Origin: Pseudomonadota bacterium
Lineage (GTDB): Bacteria > Pseudomonadota > Alphaproteobacteria > Caulobacterales > Aquidulcibacteraceae
Assembly (NCBI GenBank): GCA_023410295.1
Contig: JAEYPY010000053.1
Coordinates: forward strand, 1 to 57,885
Direction: 5' to 3'
DNA: 57,885 nucleotides
In this document: positions 30,264 to 40,650 of the stretch, piece by piece
Numbering within the stretch: the first letter of the stretch is position 1
Layout of the letters: every line of letters begins with the position of its first letter
The notes under the pieces: model-generated
Databases searched by the model: none
Told to the model about the DNA's origin: nothing
What the model saw: only the letters and a program-made list of their open reading frames with translations
Translations under genes and position numbers: made by a program

Positions 30264-31546
30264 GCGAAATCCTCGCCGGTATGTTCGCCGGCGTAGCGCC
30301 AGAGCGGCGTGAAGATCGCAAGACCCAGTGCGGCGAGCGTTAGTCCCACAGCTGGGATCAGCGCCGCCGCGCGCGGGCCAAGTTCGCTCGCGGCGAAGCC
30401 CACGATGGCTGAGCCGAGCGGCGCGCCGCCCATGAAGCCCATCGAATAGACCGCGAGCACGCGGCCGAGGTAACGCTGCCCGGCCGCGCTTTGCACGATG
30501 GTGCGGCTCATTGAGATAGCGACGCCCGCCGCCAAGCCCCAGAACACGACAACGGCGATAAACCAGTAGAAGGGCTTTTCCGCCGCGAAGGTGAAGAGCG
30601 CCGCCGCGCCCGCTAGGTGCGAGAGGATCATCGCGCGCCCGGGATGGCGCAGTGGTTTGGCGCGGCTCAAGATGAGGGCCGAGACGAACGAAGCGCTCCA
30701 GAAGGCAGCCAGGAGCGCCGCCAGCCGGCCAGCCTGCATCTCGGCGTCGCCGCCATAGGCGTCGCGCACAATGAGCGGAAACAGCACCTGCAATGAGCCG
30801 ATGACGAACACGCCGACATAAGCGGCGGAGATCAGCATCGGCGACATGATCGGATTGCGGAAAGCGTAGTTGAGGCCAGCCTTGAGATCGCGCACGGCGC
30901 CGGCAACGCTATGTTCGTGGCCCGTCGGTTTAGGCGCGCGCAGCAGCAGCGCGATGAGGCCGCCCAGCGCCAACGCCACCGCTTGCAGCGCAAGATAGGC
31001 CGCGGGCTCGGCGCCGGCGTCGCGCGCAACAAGGATGCCGGCGATCTGTGCGCCGATCTGCACGGCAGTTGTGGTGGCGGCGGCGGTGGCGAGGGGCGTG
31101 TGGCGGCCGCGTTCGGCCTCGCGTTGCACGACGCCGTTGAGCGCCGCGTCACGCACCGGCATCAGAAACGCTGCGCAGCTGCCGACGAGCACGGCGTAGC
31201 CAACGAGAATTGTGTAGGTCAGCGCCTCGGCGGCGACGATGAAGTAAAGCCCGAACGTGGCGATCGCGAAGATGAAATGGAGCTGGCCCAAGGTTGGTCC
31301 CGCTTTCGCGCGCTCGGCGAGCAGGCCGCCGAAAAGGAGAAAGCAGAACATCGGCGCAGAGAGGGCCGATTGTGCGAGACCGACGCCCTGCGCGGTGGCT
31401 CCGAGGAAGAATGCGACCAACGCCGGAAACACCACGAACTGCATGCCGAAGGCGAAGAAGTAACAGCCGACCATCGCGTAATAGAGTGCGAGTTCCGGCG
31501 GCTGCCAACTGCGCTGAGGCGCGGGCGGATCCCCCACTTGGTCCAT
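30260..31546 (-). CDS. MFS transporter
   Basis: About 12 hydrophobic segments; LFGGLLAER, YLGRVLAVY. Confidence 0.88.
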   Translation of the reverse strand: MDQVGDPPAPQRSWQPPELALYYAMVGCYFFAFGMQFVVFPALVAFFLGATAQGVGLAQSALSAPMFCFLLFGGLLAERAKAGPTLGQLHFIFAIATFGLYFIVAAEALTYTILVGYAVLVGSCAAFLMPVRDAALNGVVQREAERGRHTPLATAAATTTAVQIGAQIAGILVARDAGAEPAAYLALQAVALALGGLIALLLRAPKPTGHEHSVAGAVRDLKAGLNYAFRNPIMSPMLISAAYVGVFVIGSLQVLFPLIVRDAYGGDAEMQAGRLAALLAAFWSASFVSALILSRAKPLRHPGRAMILSHLAGAAALFTFAAEKPFYWFIAVVVFWGLAAGVAISMSRTIVQSAAGQRYLGRVLAVYSMGFMGGAPLGSAIVGFAASELGPRAAALIPAVGLTLAALGLAIFTPLWRYAGEHTGEDFA

Positions 31547-31602
31547 GGAGAGTTGCAATAGGGGCGCGTGGGCGCCCTCGTCCAGCGGCAAGAAAGGTTT
31601 TG

Positions 31603-31618
31603 TTGACCATAGCTTAAC
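31603..31618 (+). promoter_or_regulatory. Candidate CtrA binding site
   Basis: TTGA-ccatagc-TTAAC, one mismatch to TTAA-N7-TTAAC, upstream of a DUF2336 gene. Confidence 0.55.
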
Positions 31619-31645
31619 ATGGGCCGTGCTGACCTCGCTGTTGGA

Positions 31646-32860
31646 ATGCTCCGCCCGAATCACAATCCCGCAGAGCCGGCGCAGCCGCTCGAACTCAGCG
31701 CCGCGCACGAGCCGCGTGCGCGCACCGCGCTGGTGCAGCGGTTGTGCGACGTGGTCTCATGGCCGGAGAGCCGGATTCCAACGCATGAACGCCAGCTGGC
31801 GGCGGACATCCTTGTCGGCTTGTTGCGGACCAGCAACGCTGAGCTGAGACGTCGCTGCGCGCTTGGGCTCGTGCGCATCAATGACGCGCCGAAATCGTTG
31901 CTGAGGTATCTGGCGCGCGACGACATCAGCGTCGCTCAACCGTTGCTTGAGGGCGGCGCGGGGTTTGACGATTCAGATCTCGTGGCGACAGTGCGCGCAG
32001 GGATTGCGCCGCATTGGATGGCGATCGCGCGCAGGCGCGGCGTCAGTGAGGCGGTGACTGACGCGCTGCTCCAGACGGGCGATCCGGACGTCATCGAGGC
32101 GGTCCTACGCAACCAGACGACGCGCCTCTCCACCCAGGGCGTCGATCTCATCGTCGCGCGTTCGCGTCAGGCGCCGCGGCTGGCGCCGCTGCTCGTTCCG
32201 CGTCCGGAATTGCGGACGACGCAGGCGCTGGTGCTGTTCTGGTGGGCGACGTTCGAGGCGCGGCTGCAGATCTTGCGGCGCTTCGCGATCGACCGAGGCG
32301 TACTGCTGCAGGAGCTCGGCGACGTGTTCGCGCTGGCGGCGGCCGAGGGATGGTCCGATCCCGATACACGCAAGACGCTGCAGGTGATCGAACGGCGTCA
32401 GCGCAATCGCGCTGCGGCGGCGCAGAGTCCGTATGGCTCGCTCGAAGGGGCGTTGGCGGTGGCGGCCGAGCGGGGCCTCGACCGGCAATTGCTGAACGAG
32501 ATCGCGCACTTGTCAGGCGTGAAGCCGACCACGGCGTCGCAGATTTTTTCGGACGCCGGCGGTGAGGCGATCGGCGTCTTGTGCAAAGCGGTGGGGTTGA
32601 AGCGGCCGGCGCTCATCGCGCTCTGGCGCGCGCTGCGGCGCCCACATGGCGATCCGGACGCTCTGGATAACTCGCTCGGCCGCACGGTTTACGTGTTTGA
32701 CACGTTGGCGACGGCGAAGGCGCAGACGGTTTTGCGATACTGGAATTGGTCGTTCACCGCGGATGCGGCCGGCGTTGAACGCATTGCCTACGACGATCCT
32801 GGGCTCGAGCTTTCCTTGGCGCGCCGTAATGCGGCGTTGTTGTTCCACCGCAACGTCTAG
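31646..32860 (+). CDS. DUF2336 domain protein
   Basis: LARDDISVAQPLL, AIARRRGVSEAVTDALL..GD..VIEAVLRN. Confidence 0.8.
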   Translation: MLRPNHNPAEPAQPLELSAAHEPRARTALVQRLCDVVSWPESRIPTHERQLAADILVGLLRTSNAELRRRCALGLVRINDAPKSLLRYLARDDISVAQPLLEGGAGFDDSDLVATVRAGIAPHWMAIARRRGVSEAVTDALLQTGDPDVIEAVLRNQTTRLSTQGVDLIVARSRQAPRLAPLLVPRPELRTTQALVLFWWATFEARLQILRRFAIDRGVLLQELGDVFALAAAEGWSDPDTRKTLQVIERRQRNRAAAAQSPYGSLEGALAVAAERGLDRQLLNEIAHLSGVKPTTASQIFSDAGGEAIGVLCKAVGLKRPALIALWRALRRPHGDPDALDNSLGRTVYVFDTLATAKAQTVLRYWNWSFTADAAGVERIAYDDPGLELSLARRNAALLFHRNV

Positions 32861-32943
32861 CCAAGCGCCGCTTGGAGGTGGCGAATCCCACGCTGCAAAG
32901 CTAAGGCTTGATCCGCGCGCCGGCGGCGCGGGGAGGCGCAATT

Positions 32944-33423
32944 ATGCTTCACGCCGCAGCGATGCTGATCGGCATTTTCGTACTTGCTGTCGCGGTGCTC
33001 GGACGCGGGGCCACACCTGAAGCTTTGCTCGCGGCGGCGCTGATTGCCGCGGCGTGCACGCTGTTCGCCGTGCGCTTTGGCGGCGTGGGCAAGAACGTGT
33101 TCGCTGCGCCGCAGCTTGGCGTGCTGGGTCTCTCGCGGACCGGAGCGGTGTTGCGCGGTGCGCTGGCGACATTGCGCGCGGCGGTGGCGGCCGACGTGAC
33201 GCTGAAACCGGCCCTGGTGCGCGTGAAGACGCGGAGCGACGACGGCTTTGTGCGCGCAGCGCTGGCGACGCAGATGAGCGCCGCGCCTGGCGGCGCCGTA
33301 GTGGAGACCGACGACGATGGCTTTCTCGTTCACGTCATCAACGAAGACGGCGTCGATGCGAGCGGGATCGGCGCTCTGGAGGGCCGCGTGCGCGGCGCCT
33401 TGGGCGAGAGGAGCACAGCATGA
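32944..33423 (+). CDS. mnhE: Divergent Mrp/Mnh subunit E
   Basis: KPALVRVK...PG.AVVE....FLVHVI; first gene of an E-F-G-B-C-D series. Confidence 0.72.
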   Translation: MLHAAAMLIGIFVLAVAVLGRGATPEALLAAALIAAACTLFAVRFGGVGKNVFAAPQLGVLGLSRTGAVLRGALATLRAAVAADVTLKPALVRVKTRSDDGFVRAALATQMSAAPGGAVVETDDDGFLVHVINEDGVDASGIGALEGRVRGALGERSTA

Positions 33424-33707
33424 TCGCGCTCATCGCAGCCGCGGCGCTCTCACCGCTTACCGCTCTGGTTTTAGTGCGCCTTTATGCGGGGCCGACGATC
33501 TATGATCGCGCGCTGGCGGTGAACGCGTTGCTGACGAAGGCGGCGCTCTTATGTGCGGCGATCGCGGTTGGGCTTGGACGCAGCGAGGGTGTGGAAGCGG
33601 CGATTGTGCTGGTGCTGTGCTGTTTTGTGCTGAACGTCGCGGTGCTCAAATTCTTTCGCTCCCACACCTTCCAGGCGCCGCTGGCGCGCGAGGAGCGTGG
33701 CTCATGA
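33420..33707 (+). CDS. mnhF: Divergent Mrp/Mnh subunit F
   Basis: RLYAGPTIYDRALAVN, AVLKFF; ATGA coupling. Confidence 0.8.
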   Translation: MIALIAAAALSPLTALVLVRLYAGPTIYDRALAVNALLTKAALLCAAIAVGLGRSEGVEAAIVLVLCCFVLNVAVLKFFRSHTFQAPLAREERGS

Positions 33708-34063
33708 GCACGGCGCTGGATCTGGTGTGCGCGGGGCTTGGTGGCGCGGTGCTCGCGGTGGCGTTGGCGATTATGGCCGGCGGTGTGCTCGGCATGTTGC
33801 GATTTCCTGATTTCTACACGCGGCTTCATGCGTTGCGCGCAGGCGAAACGGCGGGCGCGGTGCTGTTCTTGATTGGGCTCGCGATTGTCGCGGACGATGG
33901 CCGCACGGCGCTGCTGTTGCTGCTGCTTGCAGCGCTAATTGCAGCGCTGGGGCCGACGCTGGCGCAGCTGCAGGCGAACGCGGCGCACTCGGCGGGGCTT
34001 GCGCCGCTGGCGGGACGCTACGTTGCGCCGCGGCCTGGTGTGAAGCGGGGGACGCCGAGATGA
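33704..34063 (+). CDS. mnhG: Mrp/Mnh subunit G
   Basis: GMLRFPDFYTRLHA. Confidence 0.85.
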   Translation: MSTALDLVCAGLGGAVLAVALAIMAGGVLGMLRFPDFYTRLHALRAGETAGAVLFLIGLAIVADDGRTALLLLLLAALIAALGPTLAQLQANAAHSAGLAPLAGRYVAPRPGVKRGTPR

Positions 34064-34545
34064 GCGCCGCTGCGTTGACGCCGTGGCTCGTGCTGGTGCT
34101 GACCCTGCTGCTTGCGGGGGTCGCGATCGCCGTGCTCCGGGCGCGTTCGCTGTTCGTGATGTGTGTCGGGCTCGCTGCGGCTGCGGCGCTGGCGGCGGCG
34201 ACGATGCTTGCGGGTGGCGTGGGCGATGGCGCGTTGGCGCTGATTGTATTCGGCGTTGCGATTGCGCCGGTGTGGCTGCTGGCATCCGTGCTGCTCAGCG
34301 CGCGCGCGGCCAAGCCGGGCAAGCGCGTTCTCGCCATCACCGTCCTCGCCGCAGCAATCGGCGGGGCGCTGGCGACGGGATTTGTGGCGCCTGAGTTTGC
34401 GTTGACCGAGCGCGCTGCGCATGCCGGCGCATCGCCTGCGTTATGGCTGGCGCTGATCGTGTTCAGCGCCGCGATCGGCGCAGCGGGGCTGGTCGGATAC
34501 GGCGAACGCGGCGCGTTTCAGCCGCGGCGTGGTGCGGAGCCATGA
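34060..34545 (+). CDS. Divergent DUF4040-like Mrp-associated membrane subunit
   Basis: AVLRARSLF motif, position between mnhG and mnhB, ATGA coupling. Confidence 0.65.
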   Translation: MSAAALTPWLVLVLTLLLAGVAIAVLRARSLFVMCVGLAAAAALAAATMLAGGVGDGALALIVFGVAIAPVWLLASVLLSARAAKPGKRVLAITVLAAAIGGALATGFVAPEFALTERAAHAGASPALWLALIVFSAAIGAAGLVGYGERGAFQPRRGAEP

Positions 34546-34928
34546 GAACGACCGGCCATATCGTCGCGCTCGCGGCGGCGCGCTTCTATGCGCCGCTGAT
34601 CGTGTTTGTCGCGCTCGCAGCGCTTGTCTTGCGCACGCCCGGAGCGGGCGTCGGCTTGTTGGCGGGACTTGTGTTTGCGGCGGCGCTCGCGGTGCATCTG
34701 CTCGTTTTCGGCGCTGGCGCGGCGCGCAGAGCGTTGCCGGCATTCGCGGCGCGGGCGTTGCTTTGTCTTGGCGTTGGGGCGGCGCTTTTGGGCGCGGGCG
34801 CGCCACGTTTGCCGGGCGCGGTGATGCTCCTGGAAGCAGGCTCGTTTGCAGCGACCGCGGCCGGTGCAGCGCTGGTGCTCGCGGCTTTGGCCGGACGCGC
34901 GCCGACCTTGCGCGATGAGGGCGAGTAA
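34542..34928 (+). CDS. mnhB: Divergent Mrp/Mnh subunit B
   Basis: Four TM; TPGAGVGLLAG where SPGGGFQAG is expected; operon position. Confidence 0.65.
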   Translation: MRTTGHIVALAAARFYAPLIVFVALAALVLRTPGAGVGLLAGLVFAAALAVHLLVFGAGAARRALPAFAARALLCLGVGAALLGAGAPRLPGAVMLLEAGSFAATAAGAALVLAALAGRAPTLRDEGE

Positions 34929-35251
34929 TGGCGCCTGAACACATCGCCGAAGCTTTGACGCTCGCGATCGCCGTCGCGCTGATGATGGCGGGTTCGGTCA
35001 CGGCGTGGGCCGCCAGCGCTGCCGCTAAGCGCGTTGCTGGCGTACTCATCGTCCTGATCGCCGCGATGGTGGCGCTTGCGGCGTTTGGCGCGCCGGCGGG
35101 CGCCTACATGACGGCGGTTGCGATCGCGTTCGGCTATTGCGCGCTCGGCGCCGCGCTCACGGTGCGGCTGCAGGAAGCCTACGCCAGCACCGAGGCGCGT
35201 GAGATCGACGCCGCCGACGATCGCGATGAGCCGCCGGAGCAGAGCGGGTGA
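34928..35251 (+). CDS. mnhC: Divergent Mrp/Mnh subunit C
   Basis: Three TM; TAVAI....ALGAALTVRLQEAYASTE..EI; TAATG coupling. Confidence 0.72.
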   Translation: MAPEHIAEALTLAIAVALMMAGSVTAWAASAAAKRVAGVLIVLIAAMVALAAFGAPAGAYMTAVAIAFGYCALGAALTVRLQEAYASTEAREIDAADDRDEPPEQSG

Positions 35252-36708
35252 TCGCGGCTTACGCTGAACTTGCGCGCGCGAATGCGCCGGTCTTGACGCT
35301 TGTCCTACTGTTCGGCGGCGCGGGTGCGGCGGTGCTTGTCCCGCACGCGCGGGTGAGCTGGGCGCTTGCGTTGCTCGCGGCGTTTGCTGCGCTCGGCGTG
35401 GCGTTGCTTGGAGCGGGCGCCATGTTCGGTGCGGAGCCGCCCGCGTTCGCCGAAGCGGGCGTCGCGCTGACGCTCGAAGGCGGCGCGGGGCTCATGTCTT
35501 CGCTGCTGGCGGCGCTCGCGGTGCTTATCGTGCTGGCGGCTGCGGCGCGGCTTGACGAACTGGAGCGCGCTACGCCTTACGCGCTGGCGCTGATCCTGTG
35601 TTGTGCAGGCGGTTGGACCGGGGCGCTTTTCGCGCGCGACTGGTTTGGCGCGCTGGGCGCAGCGCAGATCGGCGCGTTGAGCGCGGTGGCGTTGATCGGG
35701 CTTGGCGGGGCGCGCGACCGCGGCGCGCTGAACGGCGCGCTGCGGCTCTGGGCGATTGCCGGCGCCGGCGCGGGCGCGATGTTGCTGGGCGCGGGGCTTA
35801 TCACGCGCGCCACGGGCGGCGATGGCGTCGCTGAACTCGACGCCGCGCTGATCGACGCGCCGAACATGGCGACGCTTGGCTTTGTGCTGGTCGCCTTGCC
35901 GCTTCTGGCTGCCGCCGGCGCGGCGCCGCTGCACGGCTGGGCGGGCGCGACGCTGGGGCGGAGCCGGGACAGCGTTGCGCTCGCGGTGGGCGCGCTCAGC
36001 GTTATTGGCGCGATCAGCGTGCTGGCGCGGCTTTCCGTGCACGCCGAGCGCGCGCCAGCTGTGGCTGGCGGCGTTTCTGCCGTGTTCGTCGCGTTAGGCG
36101 CGGTGACGGTGGCGTATGGCGCGGTGCAATCAGTGGGCGCGACCAACGTGCGCCGGCTCGTGGCGTACGCCGGCGCGATGCAGGTGGGCTGTATCTTGAT
36201 TGCGTTGGCGCTCGGCTCGCCGGCGGGTTTTGCCGCGGCGTTGTTGCAGATCTTGGCCTGGGCGGCGGCGGCGCTGGCGCTATTGGTTGGTGCGGCGGCG
36301 GCGAAGGACGCGCAATTCGCTTCGTTCAATGGGCTGGTGCGCCGCGCGCCGTTCGCGAGCATTGCGGTGACGATGGGCGCGCTGAGTTTCATGGGCGCAC
36401 CGCTGACGCTGGGCTTCCTCGGCCGCTGGCGCTTGATCGAGGCGAGCGTCGGCGCCGGCTGGTGGTGGGCGACGGGGGCGACGATCGTGGCGTCGCTCGC
36501 GGCTGTGTTCTTCGGCGGGCGATTGATCGAGCGGATGTATTTCCGCCGCGCCACCGAGACCGCGGAGATCGATCGCGATGGCTGGCGCTGGACGCGCGCG
36601 GCTGTGGCCCTGGTGTCCATTGCGGCGATCGCGCTCGGGATTGCGCCGGAGTTTCTGTTGCAGGCGGTGGCGCGCGCGGCTGAGCTGGCTCTGGGGCATG
36701 GCTCATGA
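35248..36708 (+). CDS. Divergent MrpD-like antiporter subunit 1
   Basis: PLHGW, NVRRLVAY, MGAPLTLGF remnants of the MrpD/NuoN fold. Confidence 0.8.
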   Translation: MIAAYAELARANAPVLTLVLLFGGAGAAVLVPHARVSWALALLAAFAALGVALLGAGAMFGAEPPAFAEAGVALTLEGGAGLMSSLLAALAVLIVLAAAARLDELERATPYALALILCCAGGWTGALFARDWFGALGAAQIGALSAVALIGLGGARDRGALNGALRLWAIAGAGAGAMLLGAGLITRATGGDGVAELDAALIDAPNMATLGFVLVALPLLAAAGAAPLHGWAGATLGRSRDSVALAVGALSVIGAISVLARLSVHAERAPAVAGGVSAVFVALGAVTVAYGAVQSVGATNVRRLVAYAGAMQVGCILIALALGSPAGFAAALLQILAWAAAALALLVGAAAAKDAQFASFNGLVRRAPFASIAVTMGALSFMGAPLTLGFLGRWRLIEASVGAGWWWATGATIVASLAAVFFGGRLIERMYFRRATETAEIDRDGWRWTRAAVALVSIAAIALGIAPEFLLQAVARAAELALGHGS

Positions 36709-38168
36709 GCGCGACGACCGCCCTCATCGGCGTGCTGGCCATGCCGCTCGTGCACGCGGCGCTGGTGCTTGCGTTCGCGCGTCCGCCGGGCTTGCGCGAT
36801 GTGGCGCACATCGGCGGCGCGCTGGCGACGGCGGTGTTCGCGACCGTGGTGTTTCGCGCGGTGGCGGCGGGCGAAAGCGCGCGCCTCGTGCTCGCGCATC
36901 CGCTGCCCAATGTGGATTTGGCGTTCAGCCTCGAGCCGCTGGGCGCGCTCTTCGCGCTGGTGATGTCGCTGTTGGCTGTGCTGCAGGCGGCGCACAATTC
37001 GGGCTCGGTGCGCGCGGCGCATGAGCGGTCGCCGGCGCGGCTGATGGCGTTCGTGGCGCTGACGACAGCGGCGGCGATGGCGGTGGCGTTCTCGGCCAAT
37101 CTATTCAGCTTGTTGGTGGCGTATCAGGCGTTGGCGCTGGCGGCATTTCCGCTGGTGGCGCATCGCGGCGACGAAGAAGGGCGGCGCGCGGCGCGGCGGC
37201 TGCTGGCGGTGTTGCTGGCGGCGTCAATCGGATTGCTTTTGCCGGCAATGGTGTGGACGTACTCGCTCGCAGGCGCCCTCGATTTTCAGCCGGGCGGGAT
37301 GCTCGCGGGGCGCGTGACGCCGCTGACCGCGAACGTGCTTCTGGTGCTGTTCGTGCTGGGTATTGCGGCGGCGGTTGTGCCGCCGATGCACCGTTGGCTG
37401 GCGGCTTCCTACGTCGCGCCTTATCCGGCGCTGATTTCTATTCAAGCCATCGCCGTGCTGCCGGCGGGGTGCTTGGGCCTGCTCAAAGTATTCGCCTACG
37501 TATTCGGCGCTGCGCTGGCGGCGGCGTCGCCTGCGCGGCATGTGCTGCTGGCGCTGTGCGGCGTCGCCATGTGTGCGGCGGCGGTGATTGCGCTTTCCAA
37601 GTCTGACATCCGCGAACGCATTTCGTATTCGCTGCTGGCGCAAGCTCTGGCGGCGAACGTGGGTGGCTTACTGGCGGCGCCGGCTGGGCTGTTCGCGGCG
37701 GCGCTGCAGATCGTGGCGACGAGTTGCGCGGCGGCGACGCTGCTGATGGCGGTGGGCACCACCGCGGCGGTGACGCTGCGCCAGGAGACGACGGACTATC
37801 CGGGCCTGGGCCGCGTCATGCCGTGGACGTTCGCGGGGTTCGCCATCGCCTGCGCGAGCTTGATCGGCATGCCGCCATTTTCCGGCGCCTGGTCGAAACT
37901 CTGGCTGATTACCGCGTCGGCGAGCACGGGCCTCGTATGGGCCGCGGCGCTGCTCGGCGCGGCGGCGGTGCTGACGTTTGCGCATTTGGGGCCGCTCGCG
38001 GCGAACGCTTTCGCCGGGCGTCCGCCGACGGATGCGTTCAAGCGCCCGGACGGCGCTTCGATCCTGCTCGTGGCGCCAGTTATCCTTGGGGCGGCGGCGA
38101 CGCTCTGGCTGCTGGTGCTCGCCGATCCGCTCGCCGCTTTCCTCTCACCGGTATGGACGCCGCGATGA
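36705..38168 (+). CDS. Divergent MrpD-like antiporter subunit 2
   Basis: SANLF, PMHRWL, RERISYS, GLGRVMPWT, SLIGMPP.SG.WSK. Confidence 0.85.
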   Translation: MSATTALIGVLAMPLVHAALVLAFARPPGLRDVAHIGGALATAVFATVVFRAVAAGESARLVLAHPLPNVDLAFSLEPLGALFALVMSLLAVLQAAHNSGSVRAAHERSPARLMAFVALTTAAAMAVAFSANLFSLLVAYQALALAAFPLVAHRGDEEGRRAARRLLAVLLAASIGLLLPAMVWTYSLAGALDFQPGGMLAGRVTPLTANVLLVLFVLGIAAAVVPPMHRWLAASYVAPYPALISIQAIAVLPAGCLGLLKVFAYVFGAALAAASPARHVLLALCGVAMCAAAVIALSKSDIRERISYSLLAQALAANVGGLLAAPAGLFAAALQIVATSCAAATLLMAVGTTAAVTLRQETTDYPGLGRVMPWTFAGFAIACASLIGMPPFSGAWSKLWLITASASTGLVWAAALLGAAAVLTFAHLGPLAANAFAGRPPTDAFKRPDGASILLVAPVILGAAATLWLLVLADPLAAFLSPVWTPR

Positions 38169-38419
38169 TCAAACCTGCGCCTCCGCAACCGACAGGCATC
38201 GCTGGGCTGCTGCTGCTCTTCTGCGTCGTCGCCGCTGCTATTGGCGTGGGCGCGGATCTGCTGCTGGGCGGTTCGCGCTTCAGTGTGATCTCTGAACCGG
38301 GCGGACGCGCTGTGCTGGGCGTTGGTGTGGCGGCGGGTGCAGTGTTGATTGCCCACGCGATGCGGTTGCTGCTGGGGCGGCGTGAAGACGAGAAGCGTGA
38401 TGCTGGCGATCACGCTTAA
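38165..38419 (+). CDS. Small two-TM accessory protein of the Mrp-like operon
   Basis: ATGA coupling to the previous gene, overlap with the next, C-terminal LLGRRED. Confidence 0.7.
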   Translation: MIKPAPPQPTGIAGLLLLFCVVAAAIGVGADLLLGGSRFSVISEPGGRAVLGVGVAAGAVLIAHAMRLLLGRREDEKRDAGDHA

Positions 38420-40100
38420 CCCCGGCTTCGTTTGCATCCTTGCGGCGCTGATTGCGCTGGCAAGCCCGCGCGGCGTGCGCGCGCCGCTGATCGGCGGTGC
38501 GGCGCTGGCGGCGCTTTGGCTGATGCTCGACCGCGACTTCGGCGCGGCGGAGGCGGCGCGGCAGATGGGACTTCCTGTCGTGCTGCTCAGTCTCGATGCG
38601 CTCAACCGCATCTTCGGCATCGCCATGCTGCTGGCGCTCATCATCATCGCCATTTGCAGCGGCGCGAGGCGCAGCCGTTCGGAGGACGCCGCGATCCTGC
38701 TTCTGGCGGGCGGGGCCGTGTCGGCGCTGTTCGTGGGCGATCTGGTGAGCTTCGTCGCCGCGGCGGCGCTTTCCGGACTTGCCTCGGCGTGGCTGGTATT
38801 TGCCTCGCCCTTGCCCGGCTCTGCGCAGAGCGGCGTGCGTCTCTTGGTGTGGCATGGCCTTGAGGGGCTGCTCTTCCTGATAGGCGTTGCGTTTTTGCTT
38901 TCGGCGGGCGCGGCGAGTTCGATCTTCGCGCGGCTCGATGTGAAGACGATCGGCGGCGCCGCGATTTTCGGCGCGCTGATGCTGCGTGTCGGCGCACCGT
39001 TGGCGCACGTGTGGCTGAAAGATGCGGCGGCGAACGCTTCACCCGTGGGCGCGGGCGCGCTCGCGGTGTTTTCGCCGATGCTCGGGGTTTACGCGCTGGC
39101 GCGGCTTTTTCCGGCGGAACTGCTGCTGTTGCCGATCGGCATGAGCATGGTTGTGCTTGGACTTTGCTATGCGCTTGCGGAAGACGACGCGCGCCGCGCT
39201 GCGGTGGCGGGGCAAAGCGCGCAGATCGGTGTTTGCCTGATGCTGATCGGCGTCGGCTCGCCGCTGGCGATGGCGGCGGCGGAGGGGCACGCGTTCACGA
39301 TTATCTTCGCGTTCCTGGCGTTGCAGCTGGTGCTGGGCGCCATCGTCGGCCGGCGCGGAGAGGCGCGCGTATCAACATTGGAAGGCACGTCGCGGCTGAT
39401 GCCGTTGACAGCGGTCCTGCTTGCGGCGGCGGGGCTTGCGGCGTCGGCAGCCCCGGGCTTTGCCCTCTACGCGACGACCGCCGTTGCGCTCGACGCGACG
39501 CAGCAATGGGATCTGCAGGGCGCCTGGGCGTTGATCGGGGTCGCCTCTGCCGCGTCCTTCATTGCGTTGATGCTCCGGCCGACGCTGGCTGCGTTCCGCG
39601 GCGCGGGGAAACCCCCGCGTTTGCAGGAAGCACCGTTCCCGATGCTGCTAGGTTGTGCGTTGGCCGCGTTCTTCTGCCTCTCAGTGGGCTTGGCGCCGGG
39701 CTGGCTGTTCGGATTGTTGCCGACGGAAGTGGCGTTCGCACCATACGCGCTGGAGCGCATCGGGCCGCAGCTGCAATTGCTGGGTGCAACGGGCGCGGCA
39801 TACATCCTGATGCGTGCAGCCAAGCTCGTACCCGCGGAGCGCACAATGCGCGTACTCGACGCCGACAGCTTCTATCGCGGCCCAGCTGCGGGCGCCGGGC
39901 GCTGGATAGGCGTGGTGCTGCTGCGCGTTTACGGCACGGCGCAAGCCGCGCTGTCGCGCACCGGCGCCGCGGCGGGGCGAAGCTTTGCGCAGATCACGCA
40001 AGCGTTCGACCGCCCCTACCGCCGCCAAGCTGCTGCGTTGGCGCATCTGCTGACACTGGCGCTTGCCGTCGCGCTGGCCATGTTCTGGCGTCACGTGTGA
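38400..40100 (+). CDS. Divergent MrpD/NuoL-like antiporter subunit 3
   Basis: LSLDALNRIFG, VGDLVS, AHVWLKDA, VYALARLFP, EAPFPML, LDADSFYR. Confidence 0.82.
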   Translation: MLAITLNPGFVCILAALIALASPRGVRAPLIGGAALAALWLMLDRDFGAAEAARQMGLPVVLLSLDALNRIFGIAMLLALIIIAICSGARRSRSEDAAILLLAGGAVSALFVGDLVSFVAAAALSGLASAWLVFASPLPGSAQSGVRLLVWHGLEGLLFLIGVAFLLSAGAASSIFARLDVKTIGGAAIFGALMLRVGAPLAHVWLKDAAANASPVGAGALAVFSPMLGVYALARLFPAELLLLPIGMSMVVLGLCYALAEDDARRAAVAGQSAQIGVCLMLIGVGSPLAMAAAEGHAFTIIFAFLALQLVLGAIVGRRGEARVSTLEGTSRLMPLTAVLLAAAGLAASAAPGFALYATTAVALDATQQWDLQGAWALIGVASAASFIALMLRPTLAAFRGAGKPPRLQEAPFPMLLGCALAAFFCLSVGLAPGWLFGLLPTEVAFAPYALERIGPQLQLLGATGAAYILMRAAKLVPAERTMRVLDADSFYRGPAAGAGRWIGVVLLRVYGTAQAALSRTGAAAGRSFAQITQAFDRPYRRQAAALAHLLTLALAVALAMFWRHV

Positions 40101-40245
40101 CGGCCAGATGATACCGCGCGTCGGGTGTTGATTATTACTGCCGTAGTAATCGTTCGGCCAATATTTGAAGCGTGCTATGGGTTGCGCTAAGCTGTGCTGG
40201 CATTAGATTGTCGCACCTTTTATTTTCTTTCCCCGGCGCGCTCCA

Positions 40246-40650
40246 ATGGAAACGAAGAATGACTTGGTAGAGATGGCGGCGGGCATAGTATCTGCCTATG
40301 TCTCGGCCAATCAGGTGCCGTCGCAGGACCTGCCAGGCCTGATCCGGACAGTTCACACTGCTTTGCGAGACGTCTCGGGGAATTCGGCGGCTTCGCCTGA
40401 GGCGCCGCAGGAGCCGGCGGTGGCGGTGAAGAAGTCAATCACGCCGGATTTCATCATTTGCCTGGAAGACGGCAAGAAATTCAAATCCTTGAAGCGACAT
40501 TTGCGGACCCGTTACGGCATGTCGCCTGAGGATTACCGAGCCAAGTGGGGCCTGCCGCACGACTACCCGATGGTCGCGCCCAACTACGCCAAGGAGCGCT
40601 CAAACTTGGCTAAGCGCATGGGGCTCGGTCATGCTCGCCGCGGTGAATAG
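40246..40650 (+). CDS. mucR: Ros/MucR family regulator
   Basis: [43 protein letters not shown]-rich upstream region. Confidence 0.96.

Follow-up and report, generated by a model that had tools for sequence, protein, structure and literature searches.

A ten-gene Mrp-type operon that has lost its charged axis: a candidate repurposed membrane complex in Aquidulcibacteraceae

We analyzed a 57,885-nucleotide (nt) stretch of DNA from a soil-type alphaproteobacterium, referred to throughout as the window (contig JAEYPY010000053.1 of assembly GCA_023410295.1, family Aquidulcibacteraceae, order Caulobacterales). It carries a ten-gene operon of the Mrp/MBH type whose three antiporter-like subunits, D1, D2 and D3, have lost the charged axis found in their canonical orthologues. 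This loss is real, and the genes that have undergone it are under purifying selection. Together these findings suggest that the encoded complex has probably given up antiport and been retained because its fold serves some other role.

The operon spans positions 32944-40100 and consists of ten plus-strand open reading frames (ORFs) with zero internal stops, arranged in the order E-F-G-MrpA^C(X4)-B(X5)-C(X6)-D1-D2-x9-D3. Lengths are in amino acids (aa), and the basis of each assignment is given last.

32944..33423, plus strand: E, MrpE/MbhA-like, 159 aa; Pfam MNHE, 41.9 bits (cut-off 27)
33420..33707, plus strand: F, MrpF/MbhB-like, 95 aa; Pfam MrpF_PhaF, 35.9 bits (cut-off 23.3)
33704..34063, plus strand: G, MrpG/MbhC-like, 119 aa; Pfam PhaG_MnhG_YufB, 54 bits (cut-off 23.4)
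34060..34545, plus strand: X4, eroded MrpA^C (MbhD+MbhE)-like, 161 aa; hhalign to canonical X4
34542..34928, plus strand: X5, eroded MrpB/MbhF-like, 128 aa; position, with weak NCBIfam and tblastn matches
34928..35251, plus strand: X6, eroded MrpC/MbhG/NuoK-like, 107 aa; position and tblastn to canonical X6
35248..36708, plus strand: D1, NuoN/MrpD/MbhH-like antiporter-like subunit, 486 aa; PF00361, 87 bits
36705..38168, plus strand: D2, MrpA^N-like antiporter-like subunit, 487 aa; PF00361, 80 bits
38165..38419, plus strand: x9, small subunit of no known family, 84 aa; position between D2 and D3
38400..40100, plus strand: D3, distal antiporter-like subunit with a lateral helix, 566 aa; PF00361, 36 bits

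To establish the state of the axis, we considered four sites in each antiporter-like subunit: the Glu of transmembrane helix 5 (TM5), the Lys of TM7, the Lys (or His) of TM8 and the Lys (or Glu) of TM12. The passages available from the structural study of Mrp (PMC7419157) call the TM7 Lys/TM5 Glu pairs "invariant and essential" and name the TM8 and TM12 Lys as key proton-path residues. Residues at these sites were called from phmmer alignments to solved MrpD, NuoN, ND5 and MBS chains, and from MAFFT alignments with orthologues and with the genome's own NuoL/M/N and MrpA. The residues found were as follows.

D1: TM5 Glu to Q140, TM7 Lys to A222, TM8 Lys to V252/I253, TM12 Lys to R393
D2: TM5 Glu to Q141, TM7 Lys to A222, TM8 Lys to P253, TM12 Lys kept as K398
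D3: TM5 Glu to A123, TM7 Lys to R196, TM8 Lys to M227, TM12 Lys to T360

K398 of D2 is the sole axis residue kept in the three subunits, and the connecting His and Lys are gone from all of them. The initial annotation of this DNA had read the same substitutions by eye; both kinds of alignment reproduced them, confirming the loss in all three paralogues. D1, D2 and D3 align over their full length to MrpD and MrpA chains; the PDB chains most similar to them in sequence are H and X of MBS. D1 is nearest to NuoN and MrpD. Canonical D2 proteins carry a His and a Lys on TM8 (LHAVAVVK), a signature of MrpA^N, and the D2 of the window has neither (Q247, P253). In the same alignment, the genome's own NuoM, NuoN and group-2 MrpA show canonical residues wherever their family has them. 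Lysine is scarce throughout, with a single one in the 486 aa of D1, a count that the initial annotation had right, and four each in D2 and D3.

The loss is uneven among residue classes and subunits. We scored retention on residues with a conservation of at least 90% across 18-22 canonical operons, and found that conserved charged residues are kept at 4/15 sites in D1, 10/18 in D2 and 13/17 in D3, conserved polar residues at 6/29, 13/34 and 6/19, and conserved Gly/Pro at 19/28, 24/29 and 21/29, respectively. The four conserved charges that D3 has lost are exactly its four axis sites; the off-axis ones are all kept (13/13), 11 of them being present in 10/10 sequences of the window's genus and the other two in 8-9/10.

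Residues of the Na+ path have been replaced as well. According to the same passages (PMC7419157), E706a, D792a and E796a (A. flavithermus numbering) are essential, and the path includes the MrpC polar/His site, D29f/D35f, P86g and P114e/H131e, and the charged motifs of E, F and G are put forward there as the site where cations enter. The equivalents of E706a, D792a and E796a are present in canonical X4 proteins. In the X4 of the window, the Glu of the FTEAAVG motif (equivalent to E706a) is a Leu, the RGxDTLGE block that holds the equivalents of D792a and E796a is absent, and none of the conserved polar residues is kept (0/8). The PGGGFQ motif of X5 is degraded (conserved polar residues kept, 0/8), and in X6 the His of NPLPH is an Ala (2/9 kept). 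The charged motifs of E, F and G, in contrast to X4-X6, are largely kept: R44 and H130 in E, the equivalent of D29f in F (D29/R30), and in G the RFPDxYxRxH block, whose R33, D36, R40 and H42 are invariant in 10/10 sequences of the genus. MrpF D35f, called invariably conserved in the available text of PMC7419157, corresponds to an Asn in the window and also in the canonical F genes of loci L022 (L022:692-976) and L032. Canonical alphaproteobacterial operons thus already differ from Bacillus-type Mrp at this site, and because they too have Asn there, we do not count it as part of the erosion.

PF00361 scores of D1, D2 and D3 are unusually low, though all lie above the cut-off of 21.5 bits, and NCBIfam matches are all below threshold, the best being D2 to PRK08375.1-1 (262 bits) and D3 to PRK12668 (267 bits, with a cut-off of 564 bits). 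Pfam gave no family for X4, only an E-value of 0.87 for X5 (MnhB) and only 0.099 for X6 (Oxidored_q2). The labels DUF4040, B and C that the initial annotation had assigned to these three genes therefore found no backing in Pfam; their identities stand on position and on orthology to canonical operons. The X4 of the window matches canonical X4 in a profile-profile comparison (hhalign probability 95.6%, E 1.3e-8); X5 reaches 22 bits with NCBIfam subunit B models, far under their cut-offs, and is 26-36% identical by tblastn to canonical X5 in 8/20 loci; X6 matches the canonical X6 of locus L022 by tblastn (E 1.6e-10). In a search of solved structures, canonical X4 matched 6cfw_D, 6cfw_E and residues 658-810 of 6z16_A, and canonical X6 matched 6u8y_G with 84 bits, so that X4 can be equated with MbhD+MbhE, that is MrpA^C, and X6 with MrpC/MbhG. 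The F of the window itself aligns to the solved chains 6z16_F and 6cfw_B.

We compared the axis across operons within and outside the window's family (f1). Among 20 class-level loci outside it, the four sites read E/K/K/K in 19/19 usable D1 sequences (the D1 of L036 was left out) and in 19/20 D2 sequences, and D3 was fully canonical in 16/20. Over all loci examined outside the family, 28/28 usable D1 and 28/29 D2 sequences were E/K/K/K, the exception being an Asn at TM8 in the D2 of L036, and 18/29 D3 sequences were fully canonical. Loci from sister families within the order (L021, L057-L059) show the canonical residues in D1, D2 and D3 alike. Inside the family, all 17 operons examined are eroded, to differing degrees. 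Two genera have a D3 that keeps E/K/K and has lost the TM12 residue. Within the window's genus, 10/10 D2 sequences carry Q at TM5, M or A at TM7, P at TM8 and K at TM12, and D3 has Arg at TM7 in 10/10 and Met at TM8 in 9/10. In D1, 7/10 sequences of the genus retain both the TM5 Glu and the TM7 Lys, and both are gone in the window and two others. As judged from these comparisons, axis erosion is specific to the window's family, and the window stands at the far end of a graded series.

The replacements are widely shared among close homologues, which we sampled as 120 D3 clusters of at least 58% identity and 120 related D1 clusters; public sources list Terricaulis silvestris among the organisms with such homologues. 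D3 had Ala, Ser or Thr at TM5 in 118 clusters, Arg at TM7 in 119 and Met at TM8 in 111, with TM12 variable. All 120 D1 clusters had lost the TM8 Lys and carried Arg at TM12, and the connecting His had become Gln in 119. At the TM5 Glu/TM7 Lys pair of D1, both residues were present in 77 clusters, neither in 40, and a Glu/Arg combination in three; no cluster kept a single one. The two residues are retained or lost jointly, which amounts to a natural covariation signal.

Departures from the canonical pattern were also seen outside the family. Partial erosion, apparently independent, occurs in the D3 of L039 (E/K/T/L) and in locus L036, where D3 reads Q/S/K/K and D2 has the TM8 Asn mentioned above. 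Seven loci (L037, L038 and L068-L072) carry a D3 with Asn at TM7 that keeps TM5 Glu, TM8 Lys and TM12 Lys, next to a canonical D1 and D2. Five of these, L068-L072, had come up in the class search with low-scoring D3 sequences and were considered as a case of erosion elsewhere; their D1 and D2 are canonical and only TM7 of D3 deviates, which looks like a D3 subtype, and we rejected them as such a case.

The eroded operon belongs to a widespread group. A D3-type protein was found in 84/301 sampled class-level genomes and in 105/151 order-level genomes. The 20 class-level loci have D1-D2-D3 in 20/20 and E/F/G upstream in 19/20, the remaining locus ending at a contig end, and homology-anchored gene calls gave the same ten genes with similar lengths in canonical operons. 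The window's operon is flanked by a gene of the major facilitator superfamily (MFS; minus strand), by DUF2336, Ros/MucR and DUF6456 genes; the two that adjoin it directly are given here for context.

31619..32860, plus strand: DUF2336 gene, directly upstream of the operon; Pfam, 183.7 bits
40246..40650, plus strand: Ros/MucR regulator gene, directly downstream of the operon; Pfam, 179.3 bits

The DUF2336 gene lies upstream of both eroded and canonical operons in at least three families of the order, and the MucR gene downstream in loci of the window's family and of family f204; the DUF2336 and Ros/MucR genes travel with the operon in loci L021 and L041-L058. Operons of the window's family form a single branch in a tree of the concatenated D1, D2 and D3 sequences, obtained in a quick IQ-TREE search under LG+G4 and rooted at the midpoint solely for display; this branch has full support (100) in the Shimodaira-Hasegawa-like approximate likelihood ratio test. 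Because of the shared DUF2336-operon-MucR neighbourhood and this single clade, we regard eroded and canonical operons as orthologues, and not as a second paralogous copy. By these criteria of orthology, the ten genes are vertical descendants of a widespread alphaproteobacterial Mrp/MBH-type module. No redox or NuoH/NuoBCD-like module was found among the flanking genes checked, and the genome's NuoL/M/N genes lie on another contig (C152).

We next consider selection. The ratio of nonsynonymous to synonymous substitution rates (dN/dS) was estimated by the Nei-Gojobori method (NG86) for four pairs within the genus, and for NuoM in three matched genome pairs. Rough values of 0.19-0.41 were obtained for D1, 0.08-0.27 for D2, 0.17-0.34 for D3 and 0.10-0.53 for the small subunits, and of 0.08-0.16 for NuoM. 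Third-position differences were about twice the first- and second-position differences. Nine of the ten genes were called at full length in 9/9 congeners, and x9 in 8/9; D1-D3 were full length in every fetched locus of the family that was not cut by a contig end. The initial annotation had proposed that dN/dS near 1 together with broken orthologues in relatives would point to simple decay, and what we found were ratios of 0.08-0.53 and genes intact in congeners.

Sequence change in the operon is nevertheless fast compared with NuoM. Identity to congeners is 42-52% for D1, 64-75% for D2 and 54-68% for D3 versus 83-86% for NuoM; the flanking genes range from 73-79% (DUF2336) and 71-81% (MucR) through 63-72% (MFS) to 37-59% (DUF6456). 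Tree paths within the window's genus measure 0.31-0.92, versus 0.16-0.19 for two same-genus pairs of canonical operons. Against this background, 188/488 columns of D2, 134/564 of D3 and 84/485 of D1 are invariant in the genus. They include newly arisen residues, some of them polar or charged ones absent from the canonical set; examples are the GRWRLIE motif in D1, Q141, Q247 and P253 in D2, and R196, E155 and K207 in D3. The operon genes are thus under purifying selection that is relaxed relative to NuoM but real, and partly new.

The proteins also appear to have retained their architecture. An AlphaFold2 (AF2) model of D1 has a mean predicted local distance difference test score (pLDDT) of 90 and a predicted TM-score (pTM) of 0.92, shows the broken helices TM7 (205-222 / 230-238) and TM12 (368-382 / 388-402), and gives Foldseek TM-scores of 0.76-0.87 to NuoN and MrpD chains. 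The D3 model (mean pLDDT 82) ends in TM15 (451-473), a 43-residue lateral helix (495-537) and TM16 (543-565), and its longest Foldseek alignments are to NuoL, MrpA and MbsH'. The D1 and D3 sequences are thus confidently predicted to be compatible with the canonical antiporter-like fold.

Because the fold elements are kept, selection acts on the genes and the axis is gone, the complex most likely still assembles, no longer performs cation/proton antiport and is retained for an architecture-dependent role. By homology to solved Mrp and MBS complexes, the subunits would be ordered D3-D2-D1-(MrpC, MrpA^C, MrpB-like)-F-G-E, with D3 contributing a lateral clamp helix. In the window's family the protonatable chain for H+, made up of TM5 Glu, TM7 Lys, TM8 Lys/His, the connecting His and Lys, and TM12 Lys, has been exchanged for non-titratable residues or fixed charges, and the acidic Na+-path residues of MrpA^C and the polar residues of MrpC have been replaced as well. 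What remains is the fold, with its surface charges, the Gly/Pro residues of its broken helices and the charged E/F/G motifs. The fixed arginines at TM12 of D1 and TM7 of D3, which sit at helix breaks, may supply a structural charge without shuttling protons. The initial annotation had inferred that the complex is kept for something other than antiport; the axis loss on which it drew was borne out and the genes proved to be under purifying selection, and the role itself (scaffold, sensor or carrier) stays conjectural. Candidate roles would be a structural or organizing element of the membrane, a sensor, or a passive path. A more far-reaching version, which we put forward only tentatively, is that a multisubunit ion machine turned into a "pseudo-transporter" within one family, the ten-subunit assembly taking on a new, architecture-dependent role, such as membrane shaping or organization, sensing, or conduction of an uncharged species, while its hydrophilic core was replaced by small or hydrophobic residues and fixed arginines.

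Several points weigh against a complex kept without antiport. With dS near saturation (0.8-1.8), the dN/dS values are rough, yet they are clearly not 1. In matched genome pairs, the dN of the operon exceeds that of NuoM by a factor of 2-4, and the D3 query found a match in 18/30 family genomes, leaving 12 genomes of two genera without one; both would also be expected of a slowly dispensable system. The alignments used by AF2 included canonical homologues, so that the confidence of the models is partly that of the family and speaks for compatibility with the fold only. The central charges that remain (D2 K398, D1 R393 and D3 R196) could support an altered ion path, as could the TM5 Glu/TM7 Lys pair kept in 77/120 D1 relatives. 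Finally, contigs from soil RNA libraries (four runs of one study), 90-100% identical to the window, extend over every part of the operon and over its flanks at a low depth of 2-5; because genes, spacers and flanks are covered alike and DNA carry-over is possible, they are no proof of transcription.

These points bear on two biological alternatives. One is that the complex is still an ion transporter with another mechanism or substrate, offering a passive or uniport-like cation path through the E/F/G site, or transport along water wires between small residues, where the D2 Lys that is left and the fixed arginines would tune electrostatics. The entry-site motifs are indeed kept in 10/10 sequences of the genus (D29/R30 in F; R33, D36, R40 and H42 in G; H130 in E), K398 of D2 is invariant there, the Glu/Lys pair persists in most D1 relatives, and shifts of substrate do occur, since the Mrp of Thermomicrobium exchanges Ca2+/H+ and not Na+/H+ according to the passages available from PMC5703873. 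Yet we consider such a transporter unlikely: TM8 Lys/His and the connecting His and Lys have been lost from all three antiporter-like subunits and TM12 Lys from D1 and D3, leaving only that of D2; MrpA^C no longer has any of its three essential acidic residues; arginine is unable to shuttle protons; conserved polar residues are almost absent from X4, X5 and X6 (0/8, 0/8 and 2/9); and the D1 of the window has itself lost the Glu/Lys pair. The other alternative is a relic in slow decay, in which the family's ancestor could already do without antiport and the operon genes, on their way to being lost, are held only by weak constraints, such as avoidance of toxic misfolding. The 12 family genomes without a D3 match, the variation of erosion between lineages, the low identity of D1-D3 within the genus (42-75%) beside NuoM, and the long within-genus tree paths all fit a relic. 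It nonetheless seems rather improbable, as dN/dS is far from 1, the genes are full length with overlapping junctions in the congeners, and D3 has lost precisely four axis residues while retaining 13 other conserved charges. The replacements, moreover, are fixed (D3 R196 in 119/120 clusters, D1 R393 in 120/120), new invariant motifs have appeared, and flanking genes such as MFS and DUF6456 diverge comparably.

Misalignment, or amino-acid bias in high-G+C DNA (Lys to Arg, enrichment of Ala and Gly), might also have mimicked the pattern. The operon has a G+C content of 67-72%, Lys is rare and Arg common, and D3 scores only 36 bits to PF00361. We nevertheless rejected such an artefact as scarcely credible, since four independent types of alignment give the same answer (phmmer against PDB chains, MAFFT including orthologues, family-wide alignment, and hhalign for X4) and most substitutions are to Gln, Ala, Pro, Met, Ile or Thr rather than from Lys to Arg. 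Composition does not explain the losses, because NuoM, NuoN and MrpA of the very same genome have remained canonical.

How does the operon compare with known systems? Group 3 Mrp (CPA3) clusters have irregular gene orders and duplicated mrpD genes, as in cyanobacterial mrpCD1D2EFGAB and Microbacterium mrpFGBCDDAE (available passages of PMC5703873). The operon resembles them in apparently having all subunit types, a non-standard order and several MrpD-like genes, and in standing alone without a redox module. It differs from them in having three antiporter-like subunits plus x9 and an MrpA split into D2 (N-like) and X4 (MrpA^C), and the window's lineage differs further in lacking the axis and the MrpA^C acidic residues; no charge-stripped cluster appears in those passages. 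With the archaeal MBH/MBS membrane arms (6CFW, 6U8Y), the operon shares its order, E-F-G-(D+E)-F-G-H mirroring MbhA-H in the parts of PMC7684303 available to us, and MbsH' has the same TM15, lateral helix and TM16 as the D3 model. Unlike MBH and MBS, however, the operon has no hydrogenase-like or ferredoxin module beside it, and MbsH and MbsH' keep a charged axis (E138/K250/H330 and so on) that the window's operon does not. From its subunit identities and gene order, the canonical operon can be described as a stand-alone, irregular "group 3" Mrp with the membrane-arm layout of MBH/MBS.

Compared with the Mrp of Bacillus and Anoxybacillus (7QRU, 6Z16), the operon has homologous E, F, G, D and A subunits and a putative C subunit, and D1 is predicted to fold alike, but with reference to the residues named in the available passages of PMC7419157 the window lacks all key H+-path residues except the TM12 Lys of D2, and most of the Na+-path ones. 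The closest comparison is with canonical alphaproteobacterial orthologues such as L021, L022 and L057, annotated in source records as "multicomponent Na+:H+ antiporter subunit D", which have the same ten genes at similar lengths and, within the order, the same neighbours. Unlike the window, these keep E/K/K/K in D1, D2 and mostly D3, together with FTEAAVG and RGxDTLGE in X4, PGGGFQ in X5 and NPLPH in X6. Judged from titles and abstracts, our literature search found no Mrp-type cluster without the axis and no ten-gene alphaproteobacterial operon of this kind; it also found no experimental study of the canonical orthologues.

For Mrp, MBH/MBS and respiratory complex I alike, the Glu/Lys axis has been called "invariant and essential". 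If made and assembled, the complex encoded here would be the first example found of an Mrp-type complex retained without an ion path, and would raise the question of a non-transport role for an ancient module. The lineage amounts to a natural mutagenesis series, spread over dozens of genomes under selection, that may separate residues required for the fold from those needed for transport only. Should the pseudo-transporter version be true, the graded intermediates still living in sister genera would show in what order a machine of the Mrp/complex-I type can be stripped of its coupling sites. Public records label these genes "Na+:H+ antiporter subunit D" or "proton-conducting transporter", labels that are probably wrong for the window's clade.

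The assembly also carries a canonical mrp of group-2 type, located on contigs C108 (5.8 kb) and C5 (5.3 kb) (loci L004, L006 and L066). C108 encodes an MrpA of ~907 aa with E/K/K/K and an MrpD cut by the contig end, and C5 a second MrpG. A search for such a second system, recommended in the initial annotation, thus succeeded, with the reservation that these contigs may represent a recent acquisition or may have been mis-binned. The C108 MrpA was found in 0/30 other family genomes, including 0/9 congeners; its identity to the MrpA of a different family within the order is 65-68%, and neither contig is an outlier in composition. Redundancy, with a second canonical mrp permitting the erosion, was rejected as an explanation, given that the C108 MrpA was not found in the other 30 genomes and the erosion is family-wide.

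Finally, we note some features of the layout. Seven of the junctions between genes are 4-nt ATGA/GTGA overlaps, one is TAATG, and x9 and D3 overlap by 20 nt; the ten intact ORFs with overlapping junctions reported in the initial annotation were recovered in full. Open frames are weak evidence at ~70% G+C; a 481-aa antisense ORF (35577-37022, minus strand), typical of such composition and not counted as a gene, also overlaps D1 and D2. That the ten genes are real follows from dN/dS and full-length protein conservation, which are stronger evidence than the absence of stops. A scan of positions 31400-40400 gave 0 promoter-like sites, and 13 terminator-like sites where 12.5 are expected by chance. 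The small gene x9 has only a sub-threshold Pfam match. Most operons, whether canonical or eroded, have an ORF of 75-121 aa at this place between D2 and D3, and by eye the protein has two hydrophobic stretches; it is probably a subunit not described before.

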